Positions 9,028 through 41,283 of a stretch of DNA of 41,492 nucleotides are shown here, in pieces. Made by a program: the position numbers and the translations under genes. The stretch lies in the NCBI GenBank assembly GCA_017694175.1, contig JADINE010000028.1:1-41492 (forward strand), written 5' to 3'. The DNA comes from Candidatus Enterousia excrementavium. GTDB taxonomy: Bacteria > Pseudomonadota > Alphaproteobacteria > Rs-D84. The first letter of the stretch is position 1. Each line of letters starts with the position of its first letter. The notes beneath the pieces were generated by a model. The model was given only the letters and a program-made list of their open reading frames with translations. It ran no database searches and had not been told where the DNA came from.

Positions 9028-10541
9028 ATGCCATATTTCCCGCGGTTAATTGGGCGATAAGATAAAGCCTCGGCCAGGTCAGCCATTTCAATGTTATCCG
9101 CCCCGCGCAGGTCTGCAATTGTGCGTGCAATGCGGCGAATTCGGTTATAACCACGTGCAGACATTCCCATTTTTTCGGCGGCATCGTTCAGAAATTCGGT
9201 TAATTCGTGTGATAATGGCGCGGCTGCATCCAGTGCTGCACCATCCAGTTGCGCATTAGGCACGCCCTGGCGGGCGATTTGGCGATTGCGTGCGGCAACA
9301 ACACGCACACGAATTTGGGCAGATGTTTCCGCCGGTGTGTCGTCGTTTTTGTTCATATCCCACGGATTAACCGGGTCAACATCAACGTGTAAATCAATTC
9401 TGTCCAGCAACGGGCCAGAAATCTTGTTTTGATACGCTTCGGCGCATCTGGGCGCGCGGGAACAGGACAGCGCGGCATTTCCCAAATGCCCGCATGGACA
9501 TGGATTCATGGCGGCAATTAATTGAAATCGTGCAGGATATGTTGCAGTGCGTCGCGCGCGTGCAACCATGATTTTGCCGGCCTCCATCGGTTGGCGTAAA
9601 ATTTCCAAAGTGGCGCGATTAAATTCAGGCAGTTCGTCCAAGAATAAAACACCATTGTGTGCCAATGATATTTCGCCCGGGCGTGCATCTGCGCCGCCAC
9701 CCGCCAGTGATACCGCGCTGGATGTGTGATGCACACTGCGAAACGGGCGATTTGTAATCAAAGATTTTCCGTTTAATTGTCCGGCTATGGAATAAATAAT
9801 GGAAGTTTCCAAAATTTCGTCGGGCGTCATTTCTGGTAAAATCGTTGGCAATCGCGACGCCAGCATAGTTTTCCCAGACCCCGGCGGCCCAACCATAAGC
9901 ATCGCATGCCCGCCCGCTGCGGCAATTTCCAATGCGCGTTTTGCAGCGGCCTGGCCGTGAACTTCGGACATATCAATATGATTGTCGGGCTCGGGGGTAA
10001 AATGGTTCTGTTCCGGCACAGGCAAAATCTGAGTGCCTTTGAAATGATTAATTAATTCCAGCACGTGAAACGGCGCCAAAATATTTGTATGCCCGGCCCA
10101 GCGTGCCTCAGCCCCTTGGGCACCGGGACAGATTATTCCACGTTCATGTGCGTTTGCCCAAACACTGGCGGGTAAAACGCCATCCGTTTGCAGTATTGCG
10201 CCATTCAAACTGACCTCGCCGATAATGATGTATTTTTCCAATTCTGATTCAGGCAACACACCCATAGCGCAAAGAATGCCGCACAAAATCGGCAAATCAA
10301 AATGAGAACCTGATTTTTCAACGTCCGCCGGCGACAAGTTCACAGTCAATCGTTTTGGTGGCAACGATATATTTAATGCAGACAAAACATTTCTGATTCT
10401 TTCCGCAGATTCTTTGACCGCGCGATCCGCCAGTCCAATAATATTAAACTCTGGTTTGGCCAATCCTGCCGACAATTGAACCTGGACATCAATAGGTGTC
10501 GCATCCATTCCATTAAATATGATTGAATTCAAAGAAATCAT
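9021..10541 (-). CDS. comM: YifB/ComM family Mg-chelatase-like AAA+ ATPase
   Basis: Lon-protease-like N-terminal domain. Walker A GPPGSGKT, Walker B VLFLDELPEF. The C-terminal ChlI-like region ends ...YRPINRG. Confidence 0.88.
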   Translation of the reverse strand: MISLNSIIFNGMDATPIDVQVQLSAGLAKPEFNIIGLADRAVKESAERIRNVLSALNISLPPKRLTVNLSPADVEKSGSHFDLPILCGILCAMGVLPESELEKYIIIGEVSLNGAILQTDGVLPASVWANAHERGIICPGAQGAEARWAGHTNILAPFHVLELINHFKGTQILPVPEQNHFTPEPDNHIDMSEVHGQAAAKRALEIAAAGGHAMLMVGPPGSGKTMLASRLPTILPEMTPDEILETSIIYSIAGQLNGKSLITNRPFRSVHHTSSAVSLAGGGADARPGEISLAHNGVLFLDELPEFNRATLEILRQPMEAGKIMVARARRTATYPARFQLIAAMNPCPCGHLGNAALSCSRAPRCAEAYQNKISGPLLDRIDLHVDVDPVNPWDMNKNDDTPAETSAQIRVRVVAARNRQIARQGVPNAQLDGAALDAAAPLSHELTEFLNDAAEKMGMSARGYNRIRRIARTIADLRGADNIEMADLAEALSYRPINRGKYGIK

Positions 10542-30944: not shown

Positions 30945-31021
30945 GCGCCCATGGCTCAATTGGATAGAGCATCTGACTACGGATCAGAAGGTTGAGGGTT
31001 CGAATCCTTCTGGGCGCGCCA
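30945..31021 (+). tRNA. tRNA-Arg (anticodon ACG)
   Basis: Acceptor GCGCCCA/TGGGCGC. Anticodon stem TCTGA/TCAGA with loop CTACGGA. T arm GAGGG-TTCGAAT-CCTTC. Encoded CCA. Confidence 0.93.
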
Positions 31022-31135: not shown

Positions 31136-31164
31136 TTGCATTAAATTCGATAACAGGGTAACAT
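31136..31164 (+). promoter_or_regulatory. Weak candidate sigma70 promoter for leader A
   Basis: TTGCAT, a 17-nt spacer, then TAACAT. Confidence 0.3.
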
Positions 31165-31281
31165 AAATACGTCAATGGGTGTTCCATTGATGGGGTGTGA
31201 CTACCCGAATATCAGCGTCGGAATACGCGCCTGTGGTGCGCCTTGGCGTGCTGCTGTGCCGCGGATTAAGACGATAAACGG

Positions 31282-31387
31282 CTCCTGGCATTTGGTCAGG
31301 AGGGTCGTGAATATCCAATAAGCGGCACAATTTCTGATAGTTGTAGTCAACCTCCTGACCACCAAAATTTTTTGGTGGCTCTTTTTT
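31282..31387 (+). promoter_or_regulatory. Candidate cis-regulatory leader RNA, copy A (switch helix, 67-nt stem-loop, intrinsic terminator)
   Basis: CTCCTG (31282-87) can pair with CAGGAG (31297-302). Alternatively GGTCAGGAGG (31294-303) pairs with CCTCCTGACC (31351-360). The terminator CCACCAAA/TTTGGTGG plus CTCTTTTTT spans 31359-31387 and ends 23 nt before the ATG. It is homologous to 35935-36037. Confidence 0.6.
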
Positions 31388-31410
31388 GCAAAAAACAACA
31401 GGGGGCCTTG

Positions 31411-32223
31411 ATGAATAAAATTTTGTGTATACTTATGATGATACTGCTTGTACCAACACCATCGTTTGCACGGATAAAGTTGCGTGCCGGGGATAATAAT
31501 CGATGTTTTGTTAATGTAAAAGACACAAACCAGTTTTGGTATTGTGGCACCCAGGATTCAACGTGTGCCGGTAAAAAATTGCGTAAATATCATAAAAGAT
31601 GGTGGCAATACCATGGTGAAGGCTTTGACTCAGGGGAGGGGCGACATTTTTGGTGCTGTGGCGGGTCCACCACGGCCCAGGGGCATTATGTTGAAACCTG
31701 GGACCCCTTTTACAGTCGCGAAACTGTAACGGTTGATTTGCCAAATGGCACATGCACATATGAAAGAATCACAAATGTTTGTGGCGAAGTTATCGACGAG
31801 CCTTGCACAGAACCAACTGAATGTGATGCCGGCCTGATTTTGCGAAACGGCCAGTGCGTTGCCCCGTGCGATGGCACAACCGCATTTGCCAGCAAAACTT
31901 CGAACGAATGTGTGGAATGTGCAACAACAGCATACCAGGGAATTGACGACAAAACAAACGAATGTGTACGCTGTGATTCAGGCACTCAATTTTTCGACAA
32001 GGAAACAAAAACCTGTGTGTCAAAAACATCCCCGTCGCTTAAAAAAGTGACTGCTGCCACCATGAAAAAGTGTTACGGGTGTCCAAACAGTGATGTGTTC
32101 AAAGAATGTACAACGTTGTTCAGCAAATCTGACACGGAACGACGCGCGGCGGAAAATTACGAACGAATTATTTCGGAATGCTACATAGACGACAGACCAA
32201 CCACCGCCGCATCAGACGAATAA
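31411..32223 (+). CDS. Secreted cysteine-rich protein (family member 2), unknown function
   Basis: Signal peptide MNKILCILMMILLVPTPSFA. 29 Cys, including FWCCGG and EGF/furin-like spacing (CTEPTECDAGLILRNGQCVAPC..., CVECATTAYQG...CVRCDSGTQF...C). AGGGGG lies upstream of the ATG. Confidence 0.6.
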   Translation: MNKILCILMMILLVPTPSFARIKLRAGDNNRCFVNVKDTNQFWYCGTQDSTCAGKKLRKYHKRWWQYHGEGFDSGEGRHFWCCGGSTTAQGHYVETWDPFYSRETVTVDLPNGTCTYERITNVCGEVIDEPCTEPTECDAGLILRNGQCVAPCDGTTAFASKTSNECVECATTAYQGIDDKTNECVRCDSGTQFFDKETKTCVSKTSPSLKKVTAATMKKCYGCPNSDVFKECTTLFSKSDTERRAAENYERIISECYIDDRPTTAASDE

Positions 32224-34586: not shown

Positions 34587-35516
34587 ATGAAAAAAGTACT
34601 GTCTTTGGCTGTGTTGACAGCGGTGCTGGCCGGATGCACGGATTTAAGCACCACCAGTAACACCAGCGGCATGAACGGCTATGCGGCCGATGGTTTTGGT
34701 GAAGAAACATTAATCACCACAGATGAATCGTTAAATAATACATATTTGCTTGCGCCTGCGCCAAAATATTATGTTGGCAGCGCGTACAAGGTAGAAGATG
34801 TTCAATACATCCCAGTCGAAGATTTAACATACAATCAAACTGGCATTGCGGGAATTATTCCAGCTGAATTGAACGGCACAAAAACAAGCAATGGCGAAGT
34901 GTTCGACATGAATCAAATGGTTGCAACAAGCAAAACATTACCATTGCCAACAATTGCACGCGTAACTAATTTGGACAACGGACAATCTGTTGTTGTTCGT
35001 GTGAATAATCGTGGTCCATTTGTGAATACTCGTATTATGGACTTGTCGCCGGCCGCGGCCGCGAAAATTGGCATGAATGGCCAGACCAAGGTTCAAGTTC
35101 AGGTTATGGCAAATGAATCAATTGCGGTTAAAAATGCAACTGTTGGTGCAACAACACCGGCGCAACCGGTCGTGCAACAGCCTGTTGTTCAGCAGCAACC
35201 TGCCCAGGTTGTGGAAACAACAGTTGTAACAACAACAACTGCACCGGGCGCAACGGTTACGCCGGCGGCGACATATGGCGAATACAGTGTCCAGGTTGCG
35301 GCATTCTATGCCCAGGACAGTGCGGATTCATTGGCGGCCCGTATGGCGCGCTATGGTAACACCACCGTTGTCCAGGAAGGCGACATGTACAAAGTGCGTA
35401 TCGTTAATCTGGATGCGTCCCAGGCACGCAGTGTAATTGACGCCCTGCGTAATAACGAAGGCTTGGCGCCGGGGTTGCTGCGTAACGGTCGTTGGATAAA
35501 TGCAGACAGTATTTAA
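34587..35516 (+). CDS. rlpA: Septal-ring lytic transglycosylase RlpA with C-terminal SPOR domain
   Basis: Lipobox LAGC. DPBB core TSNGEVFD...ATSKTLPLPTIARVTNLDNGQSVVVRVNNRGPF. A Q/P/V/T-rich linker. SPOR-like region YSVQVAAF...YKVRIVNL. Confidence 0.88.
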   Translation: MKKVLSLAVLTAVLAGCTDLSTTSNTSGMNGYAADGFGEETLITTDESLNNTYLLAPAPKYYVGSAYKVEDVQYIPVEDLTYNQTGIAGIIPAELNGTKTSNGEVFDMNQMVATSKTLPLPTIARVTNLDNGQSVVVRVNNRGPFVNTRIMDLSPAAAAKIGMNGQTKVQVQVMANESIAVKNATVGATTPAQPVVQQPVVQQQPAQVVETTVVTTTTAPGATVTPAATYGEYSVQVAAFYAQDSADSLAARMARYGNTTVVQEGDMYKVRIVNLDASQARSVIDALRNNEGLAPGLLRNGRWINADSI

Positions 35517-35526
35517 TTAAAAAAAT

Positions 35527-35548
35527 GGGGCTTCGGCCCCGTTTTTTA
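35527..35548 (+). terminator. Intrinsic terminator after rlpA
   Basis: GGGGC-TTCG-GCCCC followed by GTTTTTTATTTT. Confidence 0.85.
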
Positions 35549-35551
35549 TTT

Positions 35552-35764
35552 TGTGCCATTGCTACTTTTAGTGTTGATTTACCGCGCGCTGGGTATTATG
35601 GCGATGCAGGGAACTATGGGCGGAATTGCACAAAATGCCCCGGAAGTGGTACATCCGCAGCAGGTTCAACCAGTATTACAGACTGCTATATGCCATCTGG
35701 TTCCACCGGCAGTGATTCCAGCGGCACGTTTATATATACGTCAACTTGTTATTATTCTAATTAA
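35552..35764 (+). pseudogene. Start-less C-terminal fragment of a cysteine-rich family gene
   Basis: This frame reads ...LPRAGYYGDAGNYGRNCTKCPGSGTSAAGSTSITDCYMPSGSTGSDSSGTFIYTSTCYYSN-stop. That is one GYY..C..CP repeat plus the C-terminal module shared with 25242-25880. There is no in-frame ATG, GTG or TTG between the rlpA terminator and the internal Met. Confidence 0.55.
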
Positions 35765-35767
35765 ATA

Positions 35768-35790
35768 CACCGCCCGTTTGGGCGGTGATT
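35768..35790 (+). terminator. Intrinsic terminator after the fragment
   Basis: CACCGCCC-GTTT-GGGCGGTG, followed by a T-rich tail. Confidence 0.7.
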
Positions 35791-35851
35791 CTTGATATTT
35801 TTTGACCGCCACAAATAATTCATATTTTTGTGGCGCGGCGTTTCATAATTG

Positions 35852-35860
35852 TGATATAAT
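35852..35860 (+). promoter_or_regulatory. Candidate extended -10 promoter for leader B
   Basis: TGATATAAT (TGn plus TATAAT) with no convincing -35. An 8-bp inverted repeat GCCACAAA/TTTGTGGC lies just upstream at 35808-35834. Confidence 0.45.
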
Positions 35861-35934
35861 ACACATAACCCGATACAAAAGCATTGGGCCGGGGCGTCGA
35901 AACCCCATCTAACGTGTTCGCAAAGAACAAAAAA

Positions 35935-36037
35935 CTCCAAACCAGGGTTGGAGGGGGTGAATATATTGAATAAGCCCGCTATCTCGTTAGATGTAGTTTC
36001 GAACCTCCAGCCGCTTGAATGTTTCAGCGGTTTTTTT
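35935..36037 (+). promoter_or_regulatory. Candidate cis-regulatory leader RNA, copy B (switch helix, 67-nt stem-loop, intrinsic terminator)
   Basis: CTCCAA (35935-40) can pair with TTGGAG (35948-53). Alternatively GGTTGGAGG (35946-54) pairs with CCTCCAGCC (36004-12). The terminator CCGCT...AGCGG plus TTTTTTT spans 36011-36037 and ends 14 nt before the ATG. It shares the blocks GTGAATAT, AATAAGC, TAGnTGTAGT and AACCTCC with copy A. Confidence 0.6.
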
Positions 36038-36051
36038 AGGGGGATTTTTAC

Positions 36052-38013
36052 ATGTTCTTGCGACGGGCTGTCATTATGTCGTGCGTATTTTTGTTGGTTG
36101 GCTATGTTCAAATTGCCCACGCGGTTACATGTGACGCCAACCAGTATATTGACGGCGATTTTTGCTATACATGCCCGGCAAACGCAACATGCGACGGAAT
36201 AAATTTTACATGTAACGATGGTTGGTTCAAAGACGGAACCGCTTGTGTTCAGTGCTCGGTGACGAATGCGACATGCAGCGGCCCTGACGATTACAGTTGT
36301 TTGCCTGGATACTATGATAACAATGGTGCGTGCAACGTATGCCCCGAAAATGCGTCGTGCGTCGGCGGACACGAAACCTTCCATTGCAATTCTGGGTGGT
36401 ATAAATTCAAACAAACTTGTTATTCATGCACCGGCCATGTTTGCGATGGCGAAACGGTGATAAGTTGCGGCCCAGGTTTTTGGAAATATGGAGATTACTG
36501 TTATCCGTGTAATATGGACATGGAATATTGCCCGGGTGGCACTGATCACAGAATTTGTAATGTTGGCTGGTACAGAGATGGCCAAGGAAATTGCAGGGAG
36601 TGTCCAGCTGGTTATTATTGTCCGCTTGATACAAACTATAATACGATGCACGACCATTGTGCCGCTGGATATTACCGTTCAGGCAACAGTTGCACTAAAT
36701 GTGCCGATGGCGTTGTTTGTCCCGGTGGTATATTGGATGAAATGACGTGCCCCAACGGATTATTTAAACATGATAATGGTCAATGCTTGCCTTATGCACA
36801 GGGCGATTGTGGCATTGCCCCAAATTGTAATCCGGGCTGTTGGGATAACGGCGGCGAATGCGTTAAATGTTCGGTTGAAAATGCAACATGTACAAACGGG
36901 GATGATTTTACATGTAATGCCGGATATTATAACAGTGGCGCGACGTGCGAAATATGCCCCCCAAATTCAGATTGCCCGACCGGCAGTACGCAAATATCCT
37001 GTTTACCGGGATATTATTTGGACGGAAACGAATGCCCGCAATGCGGCAGGGGACCTGTTTATTGCATTGACAATGCAAAATACGATTGCCCTGAATATGT
37101 CCCCGGCAGTTTAACCCCATATTTACCCAGTGGCCATGAAGTAATATACACATCAGGATATCAAGCTATTGACGGCCCAACACAATCTTTGCCTGACAGG
37201 TGTACCATTTCAACCATACAAATTTCCGCACCCCAGGGATTATACGAGAAAAAATGGACTTATTGGCGCAGCACTACAAACGCATACAGTGGTTTTGGGG
37301 CGACGTATTGGTATGCCGCAAAGGCGGGATATTATTTATCGGGCAGTAACTTGGTTAATAATGTGCAATATTATAAGCAAGTCAATCCCTGTACCAACGG
37401 TGCCGATAATTCGTATTACACTGGCCCCGGTTCCCCAGACGGCAATGATTGCCCGTGGGTCTGCAACGATGGATTTTATCGCGATGGCAATGAATGTCTG
37501 ACTTGCCCGCCTGGCATGGAATGTGTTGGCGGGGGTGTTGTATGCCCAATTGGAATGTACGCAGACAAAAATCAATGCTTGCCATGCCCAAATGGGTACA
37601 CAGATGCTCAAAACGACGGGGCACAATCAATTGAATTTTGTTTTAAAAAGTGCGATGGCGGTTCTTATATTGCCGCCGCTGAATCAAATGTGTGTGAAAA
37701 TGTAGGCCCAGGATACTGGATTGGCGAAAATTACACAGGATATGGCGCTGTTGGTACGCGCAATATGTGTGATGGCGGAATGACTACGCTGGGGTATGGT
37801 ATTGGTGCCGATGAACCCACTGATTGTGGCCGCACTTTGCATGTTGGTGACACATCCGTGCATTTACGCAGCGGTCGCCAAACTACGCCTGCGCTGATTG
37901 TGCAATATGAAAACCAAAAATTTTATGGCAATATGGCACAAAACGCCCAGGGACACGTAAAAATTCGGGTTGGCGATGTCACATATTCTGTGTACGACGA
38001 TTCAATGCAATAA
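36052..38013 (+). CDS. Large secreted cysteine-rich repeat protein (family member 3) with eukaryote-like furin/ephrin-receptor/VSP-like repeats
   Basis: Signal peptide MFLRRAVIMSCVFLLVGYVQIAHA. It has more than 70 Cys. The unit C-x2-C-[PS]-x-N-[AS]-x-C-x-G....C..G[WY][YF]..G..C recurs (CYTCPANATC, CVQCSVTNATC, CNVCPENASC, CVKCSVENATC, CEICPPNSDC). The last ~60 aa contain no Cys. Confidence 0.7.
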   Translation: MFLRRAVIMSCVFLLVGYVQIAHAVTCDANQYIDGDFCYTCPANATCDGINFTCNDGWFKDGTACVQCSVTNATCSGPDDYSCLPGYYDNNGACNVCPENASCVGGHETFHCNSGWYKFKQTCYSCTGHVCDGETVISCGPGFWKYGDYCYPCNMDMEYCPGGTDHRICNVGWYRDGQGNCRECPAGYYCPLDTNYNTMHDHCAAGYYRSGNSCTKCADGVVCPGGILDEMTCPNGLFKHDNGQCLPYAQGDCGIAPNCNPGCWDNGGECVKCSVENATCTNGDDFTCNAGYYNSGATCEICPPNSDCPTGSTQISCLPGYYLDGNECPQCGRGPVYCIDNAKYDCPEYVPGSLTPYLPSGHEVIYTSGYQAIDGPTQSLPDRCTISTIQISAPQGLYEKKWTYWRSTTNAYSGFGATYWYAAKAGYYLSGSNLVNNVQYYKQVNPCTNGADNSYYTGPGSPDGNDCPWVCNDGFYRDGNECLTCPPGMECVGGGVVCPIGMYADKNQCLPCPNGYTDAQNDGAQSIEFCFKKCDGGSYIAAAESNVCENVGPGYWIGENYTGYGAVGTRNMCDGGMTTLGYGIGADEPTDCGRTLHVGDTSVHLRSGRQTTPALIVQYENQKFYGNMAQNAQGHVKIRVGDVTYSVYDDSMQ

Positions 38014-38839: not shown

Positions 38840-39733
38840 ATGGACAAAACATATTCAGGATTTATTGCAATTGTTGGCCCAACAAATGCGGGCAAAAGTA
38901 CACTGTTAAACCAAATCATGGGACGTAAAGTTTCCATCGTTTCGCACAAAGTGCAAACGACGCGTACAAACCTGCGGGCGGTAAAAATGGTGGGCAATCG
39001 GCAATTGATTTTTGTCGATACGCCGGGCATTTTCCGCCCAGCACGCCGATTGGACAGGGCTATGGTTGGTGCTGCAATGGATGCAACGGGTGATGCAGAT
39101 GCAATTTTATTGGTGATTGATGCGCAAAAGGGCATAACCGGCACCGTGCGCGGATTGGTTGAAAAAATCCGCAACCATAAAAATTTGTTTGTTGCCTTGA
39201 ACAAGGTTGACGCCGTATCAAAGCCTGATTTATTGCCAATTACTGCGGAAATAAATGAAATTGCACATCCGCGCGATATTTTTATGATTTCGGCGTTAAA
39301 AAACGATGGCGTGGATGAAATGCTGGGCGCGTTGGCGGCCGTTATGCCGGCCGGGCCTTATTTATTTGAAGCGCACGACGCAACGGATGTGCCGGATAAT
39401 TTATATTTGGCGGAATTGACGCGCGAAAAGATTTATAAATATATTCACCAGGAATTGCCATATCATATCAATGTGGTGACTGAACGGGTTGAAGTTGCAG
39501 ATGATGGTGTTTTGGATATATATCAAAAAATCGCAGTGCGCAGCGATGCACATAAAAAAATAGTTATCGGACGTGGTGGCGCACAATTAAAGAAAATTGG
39601 CACCGCCGCCCGACATGATATTCAAGACCAATGGGGCGTAAATGCGCGCCTGCATTTGTTCGTGCGCGTTGAACCAAATTGGGAAGATATGGCCGAAAAT
39701 TACACGGACCAGGGTTTGGAATTTAAGAAATAA
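38840..39733 (+). CDS. era: GTPase Era
   Basis: G1 GPTNAGKSTLLN, G3 DTPG, G4 NKVD and a C-terminal KH domain (VIGRGGAQLKKIG). The start is at MDKTYSGF, preceded by GGGGG. Confidence 0.92.
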   Translation: MDKTYSGFIAIVGPTNAGKSTLLNQIMGRKVSIVSHKVQTTRTNLRAVKMVGNRQLIFVDTPGIFRPARRLDRAMVGAAMDATGDADAILLVIDAQKGITGTVRGLVEKIRNHKNLFVALNKVDAVSKPDLLPITAEINEIAHPRDIFMISALKNDGVDEMLGALAAVMPAGPYLFEAHDATDVPDNLYLAELTREKIYKYIHQELPYHINVVTERVEVADDGVLDIYQKIAVRSDAHKKIVIGRGGAQLKKIGTAARHDIQDQWGVNARLHLFVRVEPNWEDMAENYTDQGLEFKK

Positions 39734-41283
39734 TGTTACATACTTCTGATTTTGATTTTGAATTACCACCCGAATTAATCGCGTCGCACCCACTGCAACA
39801 ACGCGACGCCTCGCGCATGTTGGTGGTAATGCCGTCGCATTCTGGCACATGGGACAATGCGGTCAGAGATACCGCCAATTATAAAACATTGCCATTTAAT
39901 CCAAAGCTGTTGAACCGTGCCCGCGAATTGCGCAAGGCAGGCAGTTTGCCAGAAGCGTTATTATGGCGCGAAATCAGTGGCAAGAAATTAAACGGATTGG
40001 ATTTTGAGCGTCAAAAAATAATTGGAAATTATATTGTCGATTTTTTTTGTGCGTCAAATTTAATTGTTGTTGAAATAGATGATAAATCCACACACGACAA
40101 TAAATGGAAATATGATGAAAAGCGTGACGAATACTTGCGCGGATTGGGATTGACAGTAATACATATTGCCGCATCAGACGTGTTAAAAAATCCTCACGAC
40201 GTCTTTGTCGGGCTCTCTAACCACCCCGCCTTTCAGGCACCCCTCCAACGGAGGAGAACTGGGCCCGCGACCGATGATACCAAGTTCCCCTCTGCGGAGG
40301 GGTGGCCGCAGGCCGGGGTGGTCAGTGGCGATAATGTCACACTGGCGGACAAGCATATCCGCAATTTTGTGGATTATCTGCAACCGGGCGATGTGGTTGT
40401 GTTTAATAATTCACGTGTAATTCCGGCGCGTTTTGATGCTGCGGATTCCCGTGGCGCGTCGCATGAAATAACATTGCACACGGCCGAAAATAATCGTGTT
40501 TGGTGGGGGCTGTGCAAAAAATTTAATAAAATTCCGTTGGGCGAAATTCTGACGCTGGACGATGGCACAACCGTGCGCGTGTTGGATAAAAACGACGACA
40601 GCGGATTAAAATTGGAATTTCTGTGCGATAATATTTTCGCAGTGTTGGACGCAGTGGGTAAAATGCCGTTGCCACCGTATATGAAGCGCGAAGCGGAAAC
40701 ATCCGACCGCGAACGTTATCAAACGGTGTATGCAGACCCCATCGGTTCGATGGCGGCACCCACGGCCGGATTGCATTTTACGCCTGAATTAATGGATGAA
40801 ATTGAACGCCGTGGCGCAAAAATAGTAAAAATAACCCTGCACGTTGGCGCGGGCACATGGATGCCGGTAAAAACAGAAAATTTGAACGAACATAAAATGC
40901 ACAGTGAATGGTGCTGTATCACACCCGCCCAGGCTGATATAATTAACAACGCAAAACGTGTAATCGCGGTTGGAACAACGTCTATGCGCACGCTGGAAAG
41001 TGCGGCAATGGATAACTGTAATTTGCCGGAATTTGCGCGTTGCAAACGCGTTTCGCCAATTTGTCGCAGCACCGATATTTTTATCACGCCGGGATATAAG
41101 TTTCGTGCAGTTGATGTACTGCTGACGAATTTTCATTTACCAAAATCAACATTGTTTATGTTGGTGTCGGCGTTCAGTGGCCTGGACGAAATGAAGACTG
41201 CGTATGCGCATGCGGTCGCCGAAAAATATCGCTTTTTTTCATACGGCGATTGCTGTTTGTTATTCAAAAAGGAAAATGCGTAA
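39733..41283 (+). CDS. queA: S-adenosylmethionine:tRNA ribosyltransferase-isomerase QueA, carrying an in-frame DUF559 insertion
   Basis: QueA blocks are present: DFDFELPPELIA, PGDVVVFNNSRVIPAR, PLPPYM, YQTVYA, AAPTAGLHFT, VGTTSMRTLES, TNFHLPKSTL and YRFFSYGD. It is 516 aa against about 350 aa for typical QueA. The ATG overlaps the era stop (TAATG). Confidence 0.9.
   Translation: MLHTSDFDFELPPELIASHPLQQRDASRMLVVMPSHSGTWDNAVRDTANYKTLPFNPKLLNRARELRKAGSLPEALLWREISGKKLNGLDFERQKIIGNYIVDFFCASNLIVVEIDDKSTHDNKWKYDEKRDEYLRGLGLTVIHIAASDVLKNPHDVFVGLSNHPAFQAPLQRRRTGPATDDTKFPSAEGWPQAGVVSGDNVTLADKHIRNFVDYLQPGDVVVFNNSRVIPARFDAADSRGASHEITLHTAENNRVWWGLCKKFNKIPLGEILTLDDGTTVRVLDKNDDSGLKLEFLCDNIFAVLDAVGKMPLPPYMKREAETSDRERYQTVYADPIGSMAAPTAGLHFTPELMDEIERRGAKIVKITLHVGAGTWMPVKTENLNEHKMHSEWCCITPAQADIINNAKRVIAVGTTSMRTLESAAMDNCNLPEFARCKRVSPICRSTDIFITPGYKFRAVDVLLTNFHLPKSTLFMLVSAFSGLDEMKTAYAHAVAEKYRFFSYGDCCLLFKKENA
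39865..40323 (+). other. In-frame DUF559 (Vsr-like very-short-patch endonuclease fold) domain insertion within queA
   Basis: LNRARELRKAGSLPEALLWREI...LDFERQKIIGNYIVDFFCASNLIVVEIDD..H......YDEKRDEYLRGLGLTVIHIAASDVL matches the DUF559 pattern. It is followed by a locally GC-rich tail with hairpins (CCTCC-AAC-GGAGG, CCCCTC-TGCG-GAGGGG) of the kind seen at DUF559 gene ends. Confidence 0.7.

Follow-up and report, generated by a model that had tools for sequence, protein, structure and literature searches.

The window analysed here is the whole 41,492-nt contig JADINE010000028.1 of Candidatus Enterousia excrementavium (assembly GCA_017694175.1), read on its forward strand. It contains two copies, A (about 31172-31387) and B (about 35869-36037), of a self-contained leader RNA unit that belongs to a multi-copy family of Candidatus Enterousia-like gut Alphaproteobacteria. 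The unit is a folded RNA of about 170-220 nt. Its order from 5' to 3' is a promoter, three hairpins (H1, H2 and H3), a hairpin (P0) whose 5' strand is anti-P1, a three-way junction of the helices P1, P2 and P3, an intrinsic terminator, and the Shine-Dalgarno (SD) sequence of the next gene. The leader RNA is real, has strong covariation support, is much larger than the interval in which it was first flagged, and is not catalogued. Comparison of its copies reveals the anatomy of the unit, covariation in every helix, a P0 and a P1 that exclude each other, a long-range pseudoknot, and linkage to a downstream gene.

Identification of the leader RNA family

Contigs with homologs of the proteins encoded downstream of copies A and B (11 and more than 40 homologs, respectively) were retrieved for leader comparison, and leaders of the same architecture precede many of these homologs. 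Retrieved contigs of relatives carry L-numbers (L001 etc.), and a number after a colon is the position on the contig. The covariance model R1 was built from 12 leaders, using a MAFFT alignment annotated by hand, and describes 28 base pairs, those of P1, P2, P3 and the terminator. A search of 299 kb of retrieved loci with R1 regained the 12 training leaders and yielded 10 new copies. Two further copies were found on IMG/VR contigs and 19 on bacterial metagenome contigs, giving 43 copies on 28 contigs; the newly found copies played no part in building the model. In the window R1 recovers the two known copies and no others, with scores of 80.5 bits for copy A and 75.7 bits for copy B from a model built from relatives. 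The copy density is about 1 per 30 kb, a rough extrapolation from the 10 extra copies in 299 kb. The relatives were required for this comparison, and a MAFFT alignment of the two window copies alone is misleading.

A first-pass annotation of the window had described a conserved structured leader RNA at 31282-31387, with a second copy before the gene at 36052. The search of relatives and metagenomes bears out this description, both in the number of copies and in the covariation among them. The flagged interval is part of a real element but comprises just the 3' half of the RNA; the unit begins near 31172 in copy A and near 35869 in copy B. The flanks and coding sequences of the two copies had been considered not obviously alignable as nucleotides. 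The downstream proteins are both cysteine-rich with signal peptides and have no detectable homology to each other (BLASTP E = 0.16), but the upstream flanks are related, and both contain H1, H2 and H3.

The copies include two subgroups. Leaders of the first subgroup keep the GAATAT / AATAAG loop of the window copies, and those of the second have P1 strands GTCGGGGAG / CTCCCCGAC and loops different from the window copies. The junction is absent before some orthologs, where a promoter and a short hairpin remain (L001, L002, L008, L016 and L024). In most other copies a sigma-70-like promoter with the layout TTGCA(A/T)-17/18-TAnnAT lies at a constant distance 5' of H1, about 75-125 nt upstream of P1, as judged from the sequence-predicted transcription start site. 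Full-text literature searches found no published description of such an RNA in the Enterousia-like lineage. The lineage belongs to the order Rs-D84, whose members have genomes of less than 1 Mb (PMC12306168).

Coordinates of the leader RNA units and adjoining gene starts in the window. All features are on the forward strand.
Feature	Copy	Positions	Strand	Description
Promoter	A	31136-31164	+	TTGCAT 31136-31141, 17-nt spacer, TAACAT 31159-31164; read from sequence, start site predicted
H1	A	31172-31190	+	TCAATGG / CCATTGA, pentaloop GTGTT
H2	A	31192-31206	+	GGGG...CCC; loop TGACTAC 31198-31204 is the pseudoknot 5' strand
H3	A	31216-31273	+	Long variable hairpin closed by CGTC / GACG
P0 5' strand	A	31282-31287	+	CTCCTG, pairs with CAGGAG 31297-31302; C-rich, anti-SD-like
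Three-way junction	A	31294-31360	+	P1 GGTCAGGAGG 31294-31303 / CCTCCTGACC 31351-31360
P2	A	31304-31308 / 31322-31326	+	Loop GAATATCCAATAA
P3	A	31327-31332 / 31339-31344	+	
J3/1	A	31343-31349	+	GTAGTCA, pseudoknot 3' strand; 7-nt Watson-Crick match to H2 loop 31198-31204
Intrinsic terminator	A	31359-31387	+	CCACCAAA / TTTGGTGG 31359-31378, CTC, T6 31382-31387; CC common to the P1 3' strand
SD and start codon	A	31400-31413	+	SD AGGGGG 31400-31405, ATG 31411; gene 31411-32223, 270-aa cysteine-rich secreted protein
Promoter	B	35850-35860	+	Putative extended -10 element TGTGATATAAT, from sequence and position just before H1
H1	B	35869-35888	+	CCCGAT / ATTGGG
H2	B	35891-35906	+	Loop TCGAAAC 35897-35903 is the pseudoknot 5' strand
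H3	B	35915-35929	+	TGTTC / GAACA
P0 5' strand	B	35935-35940	+	CTCCAA, pairs with TTGGAG 35948-35953
Three-way junction	B	35946-36012	+	P1 GGTTGGAGG 35946-35954 / CCTCCAGCC 36004-36012
P2	B	35955-35958 / 35974-35977	+	
P3	B	35978-35982 / 35993-35997	+	
J3/1	B	35996-36002	+	GTTTCGA, pairs with H2 loop 35897-35903
Intrinsic terminator	B	36011-36037	+	CCGCT / AGCGG 36011-36030, T7 36031-36037
SD and start codon	B	36038-36054	+	SD AGGGGGA, ATG 36052; gene 36052-38013, 653-aa cysteine-rich secreted protein

The three-way junction and its alternative helix

The P1 helices, which span 67 nt in both copies, the shared sequence blocks, the upstream anti-P1 segment and the terminators all lie where the first-pass annotation had placed them. 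The combination TGAATAT..AATAAGC occurs in the window at these two sites only, with none expected (100 shuffles), and in both copies AATAAGC starts 23 nt past the start of P1. The blocks had also been described as conserved, but they are no universal core: the second subgroup has other P2 and P3 loops, and TAGxTGTAGT is in part the variable strand of the pseudoknot described below.

The alignment A9 contains 22 copies. In it 89.6% of the cells are paired, and both partners vary in 26 of the 28 pairs. The observed values are not attained in any of 500 shuffles, and only 32-56% of cells are paired when the partners are slid by 1-3 columns. The paired cells amount to 96.8% in P1, 87.9% in P2, 74.8% in P3 and 93% in the terminator, all 6 pairs of which covary. 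R1 scores are far lower on the reverse strand (76.5 vs 23.8 bits for L020) and G-U pairs are many, which together indicate that the RNA is transcribed from this strand.

Every one of the 22 copies in A9 has a C-rich strand, 3-16 nt before P1, that is able to pair with the P1 5' strand. The two strands vary together (CTCCTGAC/GTCAGGAG, CTCCAACC/GGTTGGAG, CCCCGAC/GTCGGGG and TTCTCGAT/GTCGGGAA in different copies). Their cognate complementarity is 7.3 vs 6.1 for non-cognate strands, a value reached in 0 of 20,000 permutations, and the permutation test gives p = 0.002 when each distinct junction sequence is represented once. The claim made from the two window copies, that pairing of the anti-P1 strand excludes P1 and that the two vary together, now extends to 43 copies.

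When the full-length RNA is folded to minimum free energy, P0 is preferred and is accompanied by an extended helix, in which the 5' half of H2 pairs with J3/1 and the P1 3' strand. Folds in which P1 is enforced lie 9-30 kcal/mol above the minimum (mostly about 10-14), a difference that leaves the 5-8 bp of the pseudoknot unscored. According to these models the P0 and P1 states are plausibly close in energy in most copies. Since covariation in the H2 stem is independent, we take H2, the pseudoknot and P1 as the selected native fold and regard P0 as either a co-transcriptional intermediate or a conserved alternative. The extended helix of the H2 5' strand with the P1 3' strand was rejected as a feature in its own right: it is inseparable from the H2 stem, the C-rich strands being alike, and the independent covariation of H2 favours the closed hairpin.

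The P1 5' strand is a near-perfect SD sequence (AGGAGG in copy A, 31297-31303; TGGAGG in copy B, 35949-35954). The P1 3' strand (ACCTCCT, 31350-31357, in copy A; ACCTCC, 36003-36008, in copy B) presumably matches the anti-SD tail of 16S rRNA. The leader RNA thus carries an internal mimic of the SD:anti-SD duplex. A hammerhead-like or other ribozyme core was also considered and rejected, as no matching junction sequence was seen and there was no Rfam match.

The 5' domain and the pseudoknot

In the 5' domain, H1 generally has 6-9 bp and in most copies a G-R-G-W-U-like pentaloop. The ortholog of copy A on L011 has TCGATGG / CCATCGA, a compensatory change from A-T to G-C. The H2 stem covaries across copies (GGGG:CCCC, GAGG:CCTC, GGAC:GTCC). 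H3 retains its closing pairs with a wholly different apex in L011, L020 and L026:5724, and is reduced to a hairpin of 4-5 bp in L011:4117 and L024. The 5' domain of copy B (35869-35929) is conserved in the orthologous leaders of L022 and L023.

In nearly all copies the H2 loop is Watson-Crick complementary to J3/1, the segment directly 5' of the P1 3' strand. Pseudoknot strands in other copies include TGAGAAC, TGATGAC, TTCTAAC, TTGAGACC, TAAGAC, TTCACA, TTGCAA, TTAGAAA, CTAGAAAC and TTAAGCAC. The 38 copies with a 5' domain have 33 distinct strand sequences and a mean match of 6.5 nt for cognate strands vs 4.4 nt for non-cognate ones, which 0 of 20,000 permutations reach. The pseudoknot sequence is the same among orthologs and different among paralogs of one genome. 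The exceptions to self-complementarity are two copies in tandem arrays, L057:476 and L063:899. The H2 loop of each fits the J3/1 of the preceding copy in its array (L057:218 and L063:675, respectively) and not its own.

The H1 apex of second-subgroup copies is ACAGGGATGT (for example L003 9757-9766, L013 about 415-424 and L021 about 183-192), which we take to equal or resemble the high-affinity hairpin (RUACARGGAUGU) obtained for CsrA by systematic evolution of ligands by exponential enrichment. CsrA-type control was considered and dropped. The H1 loops of the first subgroup (GTGTT) are without GGA, and both window copies lack it at this place.

The terminator and the Shine-Dalgarno region

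Each window copy has a GC-rich hairpin followed by a U-run, detected by a scan in copy A and by reading and folding in copy B. The terminator adjoins P1, and the T-run ends 23 nt (copy A) or 14 nt (copy B) before the ATG. The first-pass annotation had judged this gap too short for a promoter, and this stands; no promoter-like site was found between terminator and ATG of either copy in the window. Extension of P1 into the terminator was considered and is not conserved.

The SD regions of the downstream genes are G-rich (GGGGG, AGGAG) and similar to the P1 5' strand. In models the duplex of the P0 strand with the SD region has -10.3 kcal/mol for cognate vs -8.9 kcal/mol for non-matching combinations, with a permutation p = 0.003 that is partly confounded by orthology. 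In modelled read-through transcripts the SD is free of pairing with a probability of 0.11 in the state with P1 and the pseudoknot, vs 0.26 when P0 is formed. The models make it less accessible in the former state in 15 of 18 copies (Wilcoxon p = 4e-4, again from modelling and partly confounded by orthology). Masking of the SD by the strand released from P1 is modestly supported by these calculations.

Downstream genes and tandem arrays

In 33 of the 43 copies a co-oriented open reading frame (ORF) with an SD follows about 10-35 nt past the T-run. The next element is another copy in 5 cases, and such arrays end at a gene; nothing recognisable lies downstream in 2 cases (L018:335 and L024:13593), and the contig ends in 3. 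Thirty-eight of the 43 copies lead to a co-oriented gene, either directly or via another copy. The encoded proteins include several unrelated cysteine-rich secreted proteins, autotransporters, an outer membrane beta-barrel protein (OMP), a surface protein with Listeria-Bacteroides repeats, small helix-turn-helix (HTH) proteins of the XRE type, and a putative family-2 glycosyltransferase, assigned from an N-terminal motif. The linkage to a downstream gene is strong and a metabolic theme is absent. The original tie to two cysteine-rich genes was too narrow: the family has many copies, which also stand before autotransporter, OMP, glycosyltransferase and small HTH genes and in tandem arrays.

Arrays without intervening ORFs are present on L057 (218, 476, 681 and 887), L063 (675 and 899) and L026 (9533 and 9854). 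These arrays (L057 218-1004, L063 675-1012 and L026 9533-9987) consist of 2-4 complete units, each with its own promoter and terminator, before a single gene.

Possible functions of the leader RNA

The reading we favour, to which we give somewhat less than an even chance, is that the unit acts as a promoter-proximal gate: it would end at its own terminator, the gene would depend on read-through, and the P0/P1 switch with its paralog-specific pseudoknot would set the masking of the SD. Under such a scheme the majority of transcripts would end at the terminator as a stable RNA of about 170-220 nt, and the downstream gene would be expressed from read-through transcripts only. In a read-through mRNA with the native fold of H2, pseudoknot and P1, the C-rich P0 strand would be free to mask the G-rich SD. 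In the alternative fold, with P0 formed and P1 open, the SD would be more accessible. A signal (perhaps a protein, another RNA or the ribosome, less likely a small ligand) would shift the near-isoenergetic balance and possibly the efficiency of termination.

A bolder reading, which we regard as somewhat unlikely, makes the family a new class of large cis-acting riboregulator, a natural toehold-type switch with a regulon of surface, secreted and small-regulator genes. Paralog-private capture of the nascent J3/1 by the H2 loop would decide between P1 and P0, a shared signal would thereby set both termination and SD masking, and sRNA-Xcc1 would be a minimal relative. The hosts of such a switch would be bacteria with genomes of less than 1 Mb and few protein regulators.

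Several points weigh against the gate. The sequence gives no sign of regulated termination, because there is no conserved antiterminator and P1 and the terminator overlap by no more than 1-2 nt; the latter may be constitutive. Upstream complementarity to either terminator strand is not cognate-specific (4.2 vs 4.2 and 4.0 vs 4.2), and the ligand-regulated read-through proposed in the first-pass annotation finds no support in these comparisons. The SD is predicted to be mostly masked in both states, and orthology confounds the cognate tests of SD pairing. Because A9 and A10 are alignments fitted to the model, they favour the modelled helices. The tandem arrays and the two gene-less copies fit a free-standing RNA equally well. 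Finally, we infer the start site, the 3' end, read-through, the direction of the switch and any regulation.

The fit to a free-standing RNA leads to an autonomous small-RNA gene family, in which the terminated RNA of about 170-220 nt would itself be functional, as a trans-acting anti-SD regulator with a C-rich seed or as a protein-binding RNA, and the gene-proximal position would reflect a cassette-like organisation. Each copy has its own promoter and a strong terminator, arrays occur without intervening ORFs, and two copies stand alone. The A-rich linker, the C-rich single strand and the U-tailed terminator are features that we take to be typical of Hfq-type small RNAs. The RNA also resembles sRNA-Xcc1, a discrete RNA of about 88 nt on Northern blots (PMC2996969) that is found in tandem in Xylella (supplement of PMC12189769). 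This explanation is on the unlikely side all the same. Against it stand the 38 of 43 copies that have a co-oriented gene ahead of them, across a gap too short for a promoter, and the arrays, too, end at a gene. Improbable in our judgement is a metabolite- or second-messenger-sensing riboswitch, in which a ligand bound at the core of junction and pseudoknot would stabilise P1 and alter termination or translation. The large, compact, pseudoknotted fold, the competing helix and the position as a 5' leader before terminator and SD would suit such a function, as would multiple copies before genes for surface or secreted proteins. Multi-copy leaders of this kind are known from the cyclic di-GMP-I riboswitches. 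However, no conserved unpaired core that could form a ligand pocket is seen: the P2 and P3 loops differ between the subgroups, J3/1 varies freely, being base-paired, and the invariant columns are mostly in the stems of P1 and the terminator. Competition between terminator and antiterminator is not visible in the sequence, the downstream genes have no metabolic theme and include small HTH regulators, and tandem arrays occur.

A cis-acting processive-antitermination RNA, comparable to HK022 put or EAR, would make its own polymerase resistant to the terminator, with or without a NusG-like factor, and only transcription from the unit's own promoter would reach the gene. The invariant order of promoter, structured RNA, terminator and gene, the abutment of P1 on the terminator without a linker in all copies, and the lack of an RNA-level antiterminator are consistent with this. 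The downstream genes, with surface, secreted, polysaccharide and mobile-element-like HTH types among them, resemble RfaH, LoaP or put regulons. We nevertheless consider it quite improbable: the RNA resembles neither put nor EAR in sequence or structure and gives no such Rfam match, no associated factor was identified, and the conserved P0 alternative would be left unexplained. A DNA-level element, such as an attC-like recombination site, a miniature mobile element, or a protein operator of inverted repeats, would account for the variable presence before orthologous genes (absent in L001, L002, L008, L016 and L024), and the closest Rfam family is found in integron cassettes (bioRxiv 10.1101/2025.06.18.660453). 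Yet the structure is specific to one strand, contains many G-U pairs and scores much lower on the reverse strand; it is bracketed exactly by promoter and terminator; and its long-range pairing of loop and junction is sensible only if the transcript is single-stranded. Neither terminal repeats nor target-site duplications were noticed, although they were not searched for systematically. All this makes a DNA element highly improbable. Hardly credible is a leader-peptide attenuator in which translation of the 48-codon ORF at 31175-31321 would tie the choice between P0 and P1 to the position of the ribosome. This ORF is indeed common to copy A and its ortholog on L011, with the same TAA in the P2 loop as its stop, but it has no SD and the peptide is not conserved in its middle part; no ATG-initiated ORF of 8 or more codons exists in copy B and at least 5 other copies, and the remaining copies have unrelated ORFs in other frames. 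Conservation of the region as a translated peptide, named in the first-pass annotation as an alternative, can accordingly be rejected, as there is no conserved leader ORF.

If the gate is as proposed, a pseudoknotted RNA of about 200 nt with its own promoter and terminator controls dozens of genes for envelope, secreted and regulatory proteins in a host-associated lineage that is uncultured and has reduced genomes. The RNA would add a well-supported family to the large structured RNAs of bacteria, with exceptional covariation that includes a long-range pseudoknot and a conserved alternative helix. The proposed function would provide a concrete structural hypothesis for the sRNA-Xcc1 family, unexplained since 2010. 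It would also imply paralog-specific RNA-RNA "addresses" that do not cross-react with each other and might be of use in synthetic riboregulators.

Other observations at the loci

A tRNA-Arg gene (30945-31021) lies directly upstream of copy A in the window and is the same gene as one on L008. There (2270-2560) the tRNA-Arg(ACG) gene is followed, about 200 nt on, by a duplicated tRNA 3' end and a copy of its terminator, which resembles the attL/attR scars of an integrated element. L008 also has a reverse-transcriptase-like gene (RVT_1, weak match) just past the protein-A homolog. On L002 (9620-9760), a pair of direct repeats with a length of about 70-90 nt (…CTCGTACTTGTTCAAACTGCGCTGTCGCTTGTTTTCACATACTC…) precedes the protein-A homolog; this genome is missing the three-way junction. 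The protein-B ortholog on L024, which is without the RNA, has in its place, at 9880-9982, an 18-bp perfect inverted repeat, TTAAACGGTGGTTTTTTT / AAAAAAACCACCGTTTAA, around about 63 bp containing TTGCAT. The arms look like swapped halves of the family terminator; an inversion may have taken place, or the promoter may be invertible.

Between the RlpA-like gene and copy B the window has a 90-codon ORF (35492-35764, + strand) with a cysteine-rich, Gly/Ser-rich tail, no Pfam match, and its own bidirectional terminator (35768-35787); it may be a remnant of another secreted-protein gene. The QueA gene of the window (39733-41283, + strand) encodes 516 aa, with a DUF559 / restriction-endonuclease-like domain inserted at residues 59-158; QueA of relatives is about 345 aa and is without the insert. 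A two-piece (permuted) alphaproteobacterial transfer-messenger RNA (tmRNA) gene lies a few kb from leader copies on L018 (4072-4449) and L019 (6341-6716), which confirms an alphaproteobacterial origin of these contigs.

In a pattern scan of metagenomes, about 100 of at least 120 hits (L030-L149, for example L100, L062 and L035) belong to a high-copy repeat on ORF-poor contigs (0-36% ORF coverage). The repeat holds GGAGG-aacgg-CCTCC-aatat-GGAGGGtagctGTGAATATATTGAATAAG...CCTCCAGC and has an 18-mer and the GGAGG/CCTCC arrangement in common with copy B. It is probably termite host DNA and resembles a short interspersed nuclear element (SINE). These hits were rejected as false positives, having no R1 match even at E <= 10; their resemblance to copy B is still odd.

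Comparison with known RNA systems

With Rfam 15 at gathering thresholds, only tRNAs are found in the window. The only recurring sub-threshold match is to sRNA-Xcc1 (RF02221), exactly at the boundaries of the junction; other sub-threshold matches are noise, and weak matches to leader families lie elsewhere. The cut-off of RF02221 is 53 bits, and its scores are 33.5 bits for L012, 31.1 for L018, 28.5 for L019 and 24.4 for copy B (at 35946-36020). Copy A has no match at E <= 10, none of the 19 metagenome copies has one at E <= 5, and a BLAST search of plasmids with the RF02221 consensus gave no match. By gathering score (best 33.5 vs 53 bits) the RNA is not a member of RF02221. The novelty claimed for it in the first-pass annotation therefore holds at the curated threshold of every family, but is qualified by the weak sRNA-Xcc1 matches in 4 of about 25 copies tested, from the 43 known (24-33.5 bits vs 53).

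Pseudoknotted riboswitches that terminate transcription (ZTP/pfl and THF-I) share with the leader RNA a position as a 5' leader, a multi-helix junction with a long-range pseudoknot, a terminator and SD, and a competing helix. In contrast to these, the leader RNA has no conserved ligand pocket, its terminator 5' strand is not shared with the sensor beyond 1-2 nt, the competing anti-P1 helix is upstream and not downstream of the sensor, and the gene contexts are heterogeneous. As in the classical attenuator of the trp leader, with its 1:2, 2:3 and 3:4 helices, three strands (P0 5', P1 5' and P1 3') pair in two exclusive ways and a terminator comes next; unlike in trp-type attenuators, strand 3 does not double as the 5' strand of the terminator, and there is no conserved leader peptide. 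The succession of promoter, structured nascent RNA and terminator before surface or mobile-element-type genes is also that of HK022 put and EAR, from which the leader RNA differs in having no sequence or structure match to them.

The most extensive likeness is to sRNA-Xcc1. This RNA occurs before co-oriented small genes on mobile DNA, namely symE, ORF6N or antirepressor genes (bioRxiv 10.1101/2025.06.18.660453; 10.1101/2020.03.17.996009). It stands before symE in Xanthomonas integron cassettes and before an ORF6N gene in the APSE phage, and a Xylella island has it as five copies in tandem. The Xanthomonas RNA, with a length of 88 nt, starts at P1 and is without known function (PMC2996969). The cmscan alignments place P1, P2, P3 and J3/1 of the Enterousia-like RNA on the sRNA-Xcc1 consensus, and independent covariation gives the same helices. 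The two have in common a three-way junction, a G-rich/C-rich P1 of 9-10 bp (GgCcGGggG in the consensus of sRNA-Xcc1), a short J1/2, an A/U-rich P2 loop and an A-rich J3/1, and both are multi-copy, form tandem arrays and lie upstream of co-oriented genes. Relative to the Rfam model and the published descriptions of sRNA-Xcc1, the Enterousia-like RNA adds a 5' domain of about 75-120 nt, the J3/1 pseudoknot, the P0 strand and a separate terminator hairpin. It is also not a transcript of about 88 nt starting at P1: its promoter is about 75-125 nt upstream of P1, going by the predicted start site, with the covarying H1-H3 between. We treat sRNA-Xcc1 as the closest known relative of the leader RNA, in both shape and genomic behaviour.

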